DNA of 64,000 nucleotides, taken from Escherichia coli (GTDB taxonomy: Bacteria; Pseudomonadota; Gammaproteobacteria; Enterobacterales; Enterobacteriaceae). The stretch lies in assembly GCF_024223415.1 (NCBI RefSeq), contig NZ_CP100500.1. One strand, 5' to 3'. Below the pieces are notes generated by a model. The model made no database searches and was not told where the DNA came from. It was given only the letters and a program-made list of their open reading frames with translations. The translations under genes were made by a program, and so were the position numbers. This document shows positions 17,281-18,675 of this stretch, piece after piece (within the stretch, counting starts at the first letter, position 1; each line of letters opens with the position of its first letter).

Positions 17281-18675
17281 TTAATCGTGAGCGCCGATTT
17301 CGCGCAGTTTACGACCTTTCATCAGATTACGTTCAATATGTTCCAGCGAAACGTGTTTGGTTTCCGGTACCAGCCACAATGTCAGCAGGATAAACAGTAC
17401 GTTCAGAGCCGCGTACACCCAGAAGGTGTTGGCGTTACCCAGCGTGTTGAGCATGGTCAGGAACGTTGCGCCAACGATCATGTTGGCAATCCAGTTGGTG
17501 GCGGTGGAGCAGGTGATGCCAAAATCGCGGCCTTTCAGCGGCTGAATTTCGGAGCACAGTACCCAAATCAGCGGACCGGCACTCATGGCAAAACCGACAA
17601 TAAACATCAGCAGCATGGCGATGGCGAAATACTGCGCCGACGGAGAGTGGATACCGATATGCATCATTGTACCGAGTACGCCCATACCAGCAGCCATCAC
17701 CAGGAAGCCCAGCGTTAGCGTTGGTTTACGTCCCCAGCGGTCAACAAGGCCGATTGCGATAAAGGTGGCAAGTACGTTGGTCAGGCCGACAATCACTGTC
17801 CCCCACATTTGCTCGGTAGTGTTGGTATAACCCGCCAGTTAGAAGATTTTCGGCGCGTAATACATGATGACGTTCATCCCGGTGAATTGCTGCATTACCT
17901 GTAACAGTACGCCAAGGAACACCGCGCGGCGGAAGTTGCTATTCTCTTTAAACAGCGCCCAGCCACTCTGTTTAACCTGCAAACTTTCACGGATTTCATC
18001 CAGTTCGCGTTTCGCTTCCGCGCTGGTGTCACGCAGGCGTAGCAGCACGCGTTCGGCATCAACAAAACGGCGTTTGGCGGCAAACCAACGTGGGCTGTCT
18101 GGCAGGAAGAAGACACCAATCAGCAGCAAAATTGCCGGGATGATAATCACACCCAGCATCCAGCGCCATGCACCGGTGTAGCTGAAGGCGGTATCAGAAA
18201 GATAAGCACCGAGGATCCCGATAGTGATCATTAACTGATACATCGAGATCATACTGCCGCGAATTTTTTCCGGCGCAATTTCAGAGAGGTACAGTGGTGC
18301 GGTATAAGAGGCCACACCTACCGCCAGCCCCAGCAGAACGCGGGAAAGAATCAGTACTTCAACGTTTGGCGCAGCCGCAGAGAACAGCGAACCGGCAACA
18401 AACAAAATTGCGCCGATCATCAGGCTCTTTTTGCGCCCGAGTTTAAAGGAGAGCCAGCCGCTGCCCACCGCACCGACTGCCGCACCGAACATCATGGAGC
18501 TTACGACCCATTCTTGCGTGTGCGAAGTAATCTGGAATTCATCTGCAATAAACGGCAGTGCGCCAGCAATTACACCGATATCCAGGCCAAAGAGTAATCC
18601 CGCCAGAGCGGCAAGGAAGCAGACGAAAAACGTCATTGCCTTGTTTGACCGCCCCTGTTTTTTAGCGTCAGGCAT
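17281..18675 (-). pseudogene. galP: galactose:H+ symporter galP interrupted by an in-frame TAA stop (plus strand 17839-17841) at the position where GalP has Glu in ...YYAPKIF-E-LAGYTN...
   Basis: The track splits the gene into two same-frame ORFs (17839-18687 and 17281-17808); read-through translation gives ...[27 protein letters not shown]..., which is GalP with one stop. Confidence 0.8.

Follow-up and report, generated by a model that had tools for sequence, protein, structure and literature searches.

The galP gene lies on the minus strand of the window, by which we mean the whole 64,000-nucleotide stretch of Escherichia coli DNA analysed here, and its neighbourhood is normal, with metK upstream and yggI (sprT) and endA downstream. 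On translation, the 465 codons of the gene all lie in one frame, and the sole internal stop follows ...MYYAPKIF at codon 279 of 464, about 60% of the way in, where the plus-strand letters read tta (Table 1). The first-pass annotation had described just such an in-frame TAA with two halves sharing one frame on either side of it, had proposed a change from GAA to TAA as the simplest explanation, and had regarded the gene as recently inactivated and not decayed. Translation bears out the first of these points, and the second is upheld by the intact allele of SCU-316: in an ungapped comparison of positions 17281–18900 with that locus, the sole difference is at plus-strand position 17841, where the window has A and the ancestral base is C; this G:C to T:A transversion turns GAA into TAA on the coding strand. 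A 1,620-bp query consisting of galP and the 225 bp upstream matched 5,425 of the 5,426 complete E. coli genomes and was one base apart from the best six by bit score, all of them with intact galP; over the gene itself, nucleotide identity to the gene for WP_001112301.1 (found in SCU-316, NCTC10444, and others) is 1,394/1,395. Because there is no second lesion and the rest of the gene is base-identical to intact alleles, the inactivation is recent, as had been supposed. Apart from the one in-frame stop, the alignment to intact orthologues is full-length, and judged on these alignments the locus would be classed as a pseudogene arising from a nonsense mutation (an "internal stop" in the vocabulary of PGAP) and not as a functional member of its family.

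Table 1. Features of the galP locus, with positions counted from the first letter of the window
Feature	Position	Strand	Description
galP pseudogene	17281..18675	minus	galactose/H+ symporter frame with 464 codons before its natural stop, broken at codon 279 (from translation)
Premature ochre stop TAA	17839..17841	minus	in place of GAA (Glu279); from translation and comparison with intact galP
N-terminal fragment	17842..18675	minus	278 aa, helices 1–7, ending just past the TM7 motif
C-terminal remnant	17281..17808	minus	untranslated/orphan, Met290–Asp464, helices 8–12
Ribosome-binding site GGAGGG	18680..18685	minus	unchanged relative to K-12 in the alignment
CRP site TGTGAAGCAAATCACA	18739..18754		perfect consensus half-sites TGTGAN6TCACA; identical in K-12
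Promoter-proximal GalR/GalS operator GTGTAAGCGATTACAC	18758..18773		palindromic, without mismatch on either strand; same sequence in K-12
Distal gal-operator-like site GTGTAATCGGTTTCAG	18940..18955		one mismatch to the pattern; putative operator

The regulators documented for galP are CRP, GalR, GalS, and NagC (PMC4145685, Table 3; PMC10519446; PMC3119520), with CRP control listed in PMC4145685 (Table 3) and repression by GalR/GalS in PMC3119520 and PMC10519446. The perfect CRP consensus has a single match in the 64 kb, where 0.04 would be expected by chance, and the 118 nt before the galP ATG are invariant among the window, K-12, and the two other backgrounds in which we found the same stop codon. 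The distal operator-like site, 182 bp upstream of the promoter-proximal operator, is conserved in all four aligned backgrounds; an SNP private to NCTC10444, at 18938, lies two bases from it. A consensus promoter scan of the window did not detect the galP promoter, as is expected of a CRP-dependent one. The earlier statement that the CRP/GalR control region is intact holds up, the consensus sites being present and the region identical to that of K-12; on this sequence comparison, "intact" is correct in the sense of unchanged from functional alleles.

Authenticity of the stop codon and the clone that carries it

The E279* allele was found in none of the 5,426 complete E. coli genomes with a 45-nt query centred on the SNP, a design in which every 28-mer seed spans the site, so that only carriers of the allele can match, and which was validated by the recovery of a different galP allele, K276*, with E = 2e-14. 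Together with the lesion being a difference of one base, this absence is what speaks for a sequencing or assembly error, in which the strain would truly have GAA and the A at 17841 would be a miscall; the first-pass annotation had left open whether the loss was genuine or an error of this kind. Carriers were, however, located in public assemblies through the exact 278-aa truncated product. The NCBI draft GCA_900482235.1 (contig UDHK01000032.1) agrees with the window at 17,389 of 17,389 bases, TAA included, and the identical stretch spans three further window-private SNPs, at 12125, 16091, and 21369. SRR19977205 agrees with it at 12,109 of 12,109 bases, again including the TAA, and the identical contig is present in four samples; SRR19977217 has the TAA on the window haplotype plus one extra SNP, and the GenBank entry SRA13732.1 is an identical 278-aa product. 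As the lesion is reproduced in independent sequence data and independently sequenced assemblies share both the TAA and its haplotype, the allele is genuine and no product of sequencing error, GCA_900482235.1, SRR19977205, and SRR19977217 settling what had been left undecided. If GCA_900482235.1 came from the same isolate as the window, it would not be fully independent, but SRR19977205 and SRR19977217, the latter with its extra SNP, still would be. The same base and other private SNPs of the window recur in assemblies made independently in at least two projects, and the absence of indels relative to its relatives across the 64 kb leaves no homopolymer-type error signature; on both grounds we reject a miscall, whose probability we consider negligible.

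The window clone carrying E279* comprises at least seven samples. What had been called a strain-specific loss is genuine, then, but the part of that description implying uniqueness to a single isolate does not stand, given these samples and the two other backgrounds described in the next section. The window is collinear over 64 kb with NCTC10444, KV7, NCTC9112, and O78 strain 3; relative to NCTC10444 and KV7 there are no indels, and the substitutions number 16–21 per relative. A look at the galP alleles of related strains, which the first-pass annotation had proposed as a check, found the relatives intact and 17841 the one difference. Twelve substitutions are private to the window when compared with its close relatives, the galP change among them, and by effect they divide into two synonymous, five missense, one nonsense, and four intergenic, a spectrum consistent with the unfiltered one expected of very recent mutations on a very young branch. 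Among the complete annotated coding sequences transferred from NCTC10444, galP is the sole broken gene in the window. By sequence, E279* marks a small natural clone related to the group of O78 strain 3, NCTC10444, NCTC9112, and KV7.

Some further features of this haplotype are worth recording. The private missense changes are yggR F83I (12125), G81R in a hypothetical protein (46508), scpA R120L (54553), fau V192I (58994), and ubiH A41V (62357), and of these five sites 12125 alone is confirmed in GCA_900482235.1. The private SNPs at 43653 and 56377 each replace G with T directly 5' of CTTTTTTT; both lie in T-runs that resemble terminators, one downstream of fbaA and the other upstream of rpiA. 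G:C to T:A changes make up four of the twelve private SNPs, and a local mutator of the mutY type was entertained as their source; mutY itself (2806–3858) is without private change, and a sample of twelve SNPs is too small for any conclusion, so we did not retain the idea. A copy of IS1397, of the IS3 family, occupies 25129–26477 between speB and loiP and occurs as well in the five complete genomes nearest to the window; SRR31122240 and SRR8931301, the two other carriers, have a DUF1266 gene in its place, and the draft contig of GCA_900482235.1 breaks at the element. No mention of the accessions of the carrier samples was found in the literature.

Recurrence of E279* and other truncated GalP products

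Two more contigs read exactly TTC TAA CTG at this point of the gene, in backgrounds separated from that of the window by 94 substitutions in one case and 67 in the other over a stretch of 6.8 kb. They come from SRR31122240 and SRR8931301, in whose loci (L027 and L028, respectively) galP E279* is located at 10001–10837. The background of SRR8931301 shows a single mismatch, over 15.7 kb, to O103:H2 and O121 STEC genomes, and a group of human isolates (XDL, elppa9, FDAARGOS_1281, and 2900) lies about two mismatches away from that of SRR31122240; for all three E279* backgrounds the nearest complete genomes are wild type, and the carriers are tip lineages. That the two divergent carriers acquired the TAA through recombination is ruled out by background-specific SNPs close to the stop, at distances of 23 and 61 bp in SRR31122240 (L012) and 44 and 61 bp in SRR8931301 (L013). 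Differing SNPs at 23–61 bp from the stop imply three or more independent origins of E279* and no spread through recombination: the identical change originated separately in the window clone and in two unrelated backgrounds.

The stop at codon 279 is one of several in this part of the gene. Exact GalP prefixes of various lengths were counted by contig in public assemblies, and the counts are to be read as upper bounds and not as numbers of events, since they pool true stops with contig ends, a junction to foreign sequence, and an artefact from an Illumina adapter. With this reservation, prefixes ending before a nonsense-capable codon were present on 118 contigs for K276*, 85 for W291*, 81 for Y273*, 63 for E288*, 31 for E279*, 19 for Y283*, 1 for Y272*, and 0 for Q289*; those ending before codons that are not one change from a stop were on 0–2 contigs, and those ending before codons with natural synonymous SNPs (285 and 292 aa) were absent from the collection. 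With its 31 contigs, E279 falls within the range of the neighbouring nonsense sites (0 to 118), and we rejected the notion of a mutational hotspot. W291* is reached through both TAG and TGA among the contigs that we inspected, and K276* occurs in nine complete genomes, all of them laboratory derivatives of K-12 (ER2796, ER3413, and seven derivatives of MG1655). Across public assemblies, with truncated products spanning galP codons 257–291, loss of galP is recurrent but rare.

Several of the contigs behind these counts are of a different nature. Five (L030–L033 and L035), from five further diverse backgrounds, stop at galP nt 834–836, that is, at codon 278/279, and L038–L040 and L046–L047 are further contig ends at nonsense-capable codons. 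Within the codon, the ends have offsets of +0, +0, +0, +2, and +2 for E279, of +0, +0, and +1 for Y273, and of +2 and +0 for W291. A graph branch at the nonsense base would not produce such offsets, and within-sample heterogeneity between G and T was rejected as the source of the ends; chance was rejected as well, other prefix lengths being almost absent from the collection. The contig ends at codon 278/279 are probably uninformative and an artefact of how the collection records partial products. In a contig from SRR10963168 (L036, with 19 similar places), galP is followed after nt 817 (codon 272) by unrelated sequence, GATCCACCGCGCGATAAATAAGCCGCAAT, and the break is a junction with an insertion or rearrangement, while a contig of ERZ783848 (L037) ends in the Illumina adapter AGATCGGAAGAGC, an assembly contaminant. 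The gene is disrupted in other ways in GCA_002949875.1 (CP026824.1), where a frameshifted galP leaves an N-terminal fragment of 293 aa with an IS4-family element just upstream and where sprT and gshB are broken as well; in ERR13115098, the end of a Mu-like prophage lies directly upstream of a C-terminal fragment of GalP.

Recurrence raises the question of whether galP nulls are positively selected in some natural niche, E279* being one of many convergent changes and not a case of neutral decay. The same GAA to TAA change in three unrelated backgrounds, with a shared recombination tract ruled out, would fit such selection, as would the two routes to W291*, the exact truncated products before other nonsense-capable codons on 19–118 contigs each, and a window clone that has been sampled at least seven times and has gained a further SNP. 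In a collection as huge as the public one, however, weak purifying selection would be expected to leave a few independent events at any nonsense site, and E279*, on 31 contigs, is no outlier among counts in which contig ends and junction artefacts are pooled with true stops. All the events are, moreover, at the level of tips, with E279* in 0 of the 5,426 complete genomes and the nine complete genomes with K276* all coming from laboratory K-12. Adaptive loss seems to us unlikely on this balance; if true, it would mean that losing the low-affinity galactose/glucose proton symporter is adaptive in some niche.

Predicted consequences of the truncation

With the stop restored to sense, GalP scores 507 bits on TIGR00879, the NCBIfam model of the sugar porter subfamily of the MFS, against a cutoff of 237.8, and it aligns full-length to the solved sugar porters GlcP (4LDS) and XylE (4GBY). 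The two fragments divide that model between them, the 278-aa one covering positions 47–339 of 510 and the C-terminal one 350–510. The 278-aa product ends just past QQxxGxNxxxYY, the motif of TM7, and strong hydrophobicity does not resume until a segment that begins at residue 293; this places the stop in the loop that joins helix 7 to helix 8, with helices 8–12 lost, and with the stop at codon 279 there is no uninterrupted frame for twelve helices. What remains downstream is an orphan ORF of 175 aa beginning at Met290, its ATG 30 nt after the TAA, which gene callers report separately in other assemblies.

The explanation that we favour, and hold with considerable confidence as a whole, is that the codon for Glu279 (GAA) became ochre TAA through one G:C to T:A transversion in a small natural clone of E. 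coli. Transcription would still be normal from the unchanged promoter, activated by CRP and repressed by GalR/GalS, and translation would halt once residue 278 has been added, within the short loop from helix 7 to helix 8. The product would keep the N-domain and helix 7 but not helices 8–12, which make up most of the C-domain half of the sugar/proton pathway, and would be unable to make a functional sugar porter of 12 helices. The cell would lose its low-affinity galactose/H+ (and glucose) symporter and rely mainly on the high-affinity system MglBAC. We infer this loss of transport because helices 8–12 are absent, and the phenotype would be expected to be mild, with slower growth at high galactose. 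In K-12, a galP deletion strain grows on 0.3% galactose and reaches stationary phase about 200 min later than the wild type, Mgl being the system for high-affinity galactose uptake (PMC3119520). In all probability, then, galP of the window is a genuine and recent loss-of-function allele that owes its state to a single nonsense change.

A residue of GalP function might be kept in one of two ways, through read-through or ochre suppression of the TAA or through a permease in two pieces, the 278-aa fragment and a second one restarted at Met290. Assembly from two pieces is known experimentally for co-expressed fragments of LacY, and in the window the break falls in an inter-helix loop and not within a helix, the in-frame ATG follows 30 nt on, and both fragments are otherwise intact. 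Yet the 30 nt between the TAA and the Met290 ATG hold no Shine–Dalgarno-like motif, and a restart there is unlikely for this reason; the second piece does not have a start of its own with a ribosome-binding site, and eleven loop residues, 279–289, would be missing from the assembled protein. Nor is the split arrangement maintained in any clade, with 0 of the 5,426 complete genomes and only tip lineages carrying it. UAA is an efficient terminator and natural isolates seldom carry ochre suppressors; suppression is presumably absent. The 64-kb window contains no tRNA genes, and any suppressor tRNA would be encoded elsewhere in the genome. Retention of function is, in our estimate, highly improbable, and a split permease is still less likely than the repeated selection of galP nulls.

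Relation to known GalP losses and significance

The nearest precedent for the nonsense allele E279* is K276* (AAA to TAA), known from ER2796, ER3413, and seven genomes derived from MG1655 and reported among the nine nonsense mutations of ER2796 (PMC4444293). It is likewise an ochre stop, three codons upstream of E279*, and leaves a fragment of about 275 aa together with the same orphan C-terminal ORF of 175 aa; in ER2796, RefSeq annotates galP as a pseudogene with an "internal stop." The two differ in that K276* replaces A:T with T:A and sits in laboratory derivatives of K-12, whereas E279* replaces G:C with T:A and is carried by natural isolates. Also on record are the natural galP alleles W291* and those with products ending before codons 273, 283, and 288, which are single-SNP stops in the same helix 7–8 region in diverse E. 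coli, although they lie at other codons and artefacts of contig ends and junctions raise their contig counts; no description of these natural nonsense alleles was found in the searchable literature.

Beyond E. coli, the enterobacteria Yersinia, Dickeya, and Sodalis are naturally without GalP and rely on Mgl only (PMC3119520), the same network state, Mgl without the low-affinity symporter, as that predicted for the window clone. In those genera, however, the gene is missing or has been destroyed by large lesions and the loss is fixed in the species, whereas in the window it consists of one revertible SNP in a tip clone. The galM pseudogene of Yersinia pestis is similar in that a gene of the gal network is silenced by a single-nucleotide lesion, revertible and with the rest intact, but there the lesion is a single-base deletion with a frameshift, in another gene, and every Y. 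pestis genome carries it as a fixed change (PMC3119520).

Overall, the findings reveal no new mechanism or system, the gene, its regulation, and the type of lesion all being well known: a lesion of this kind is already published and annotated in K276*, three codons away, and E279* itself is already in GenBank. What our analysis adds is that the allele is real, that it marks a small natural clone, and that by its sequence context it arose independently in at least two other lineages. For annotation, the locus should read as a pseudogene, one GenBank draft having two MFS/symporter fragments in its place (SRA13732.1 and SRA13734.1), and the galP SNP offers a clean marker for the clone. As for the biology of the organism, strains of the clone are probably without GalP-mediated uptake of galactose and glucose, which would be relevant to phenotyping on galactose or 2-deoxygalactose and to the engineering of PTS-independent glucose uptake.
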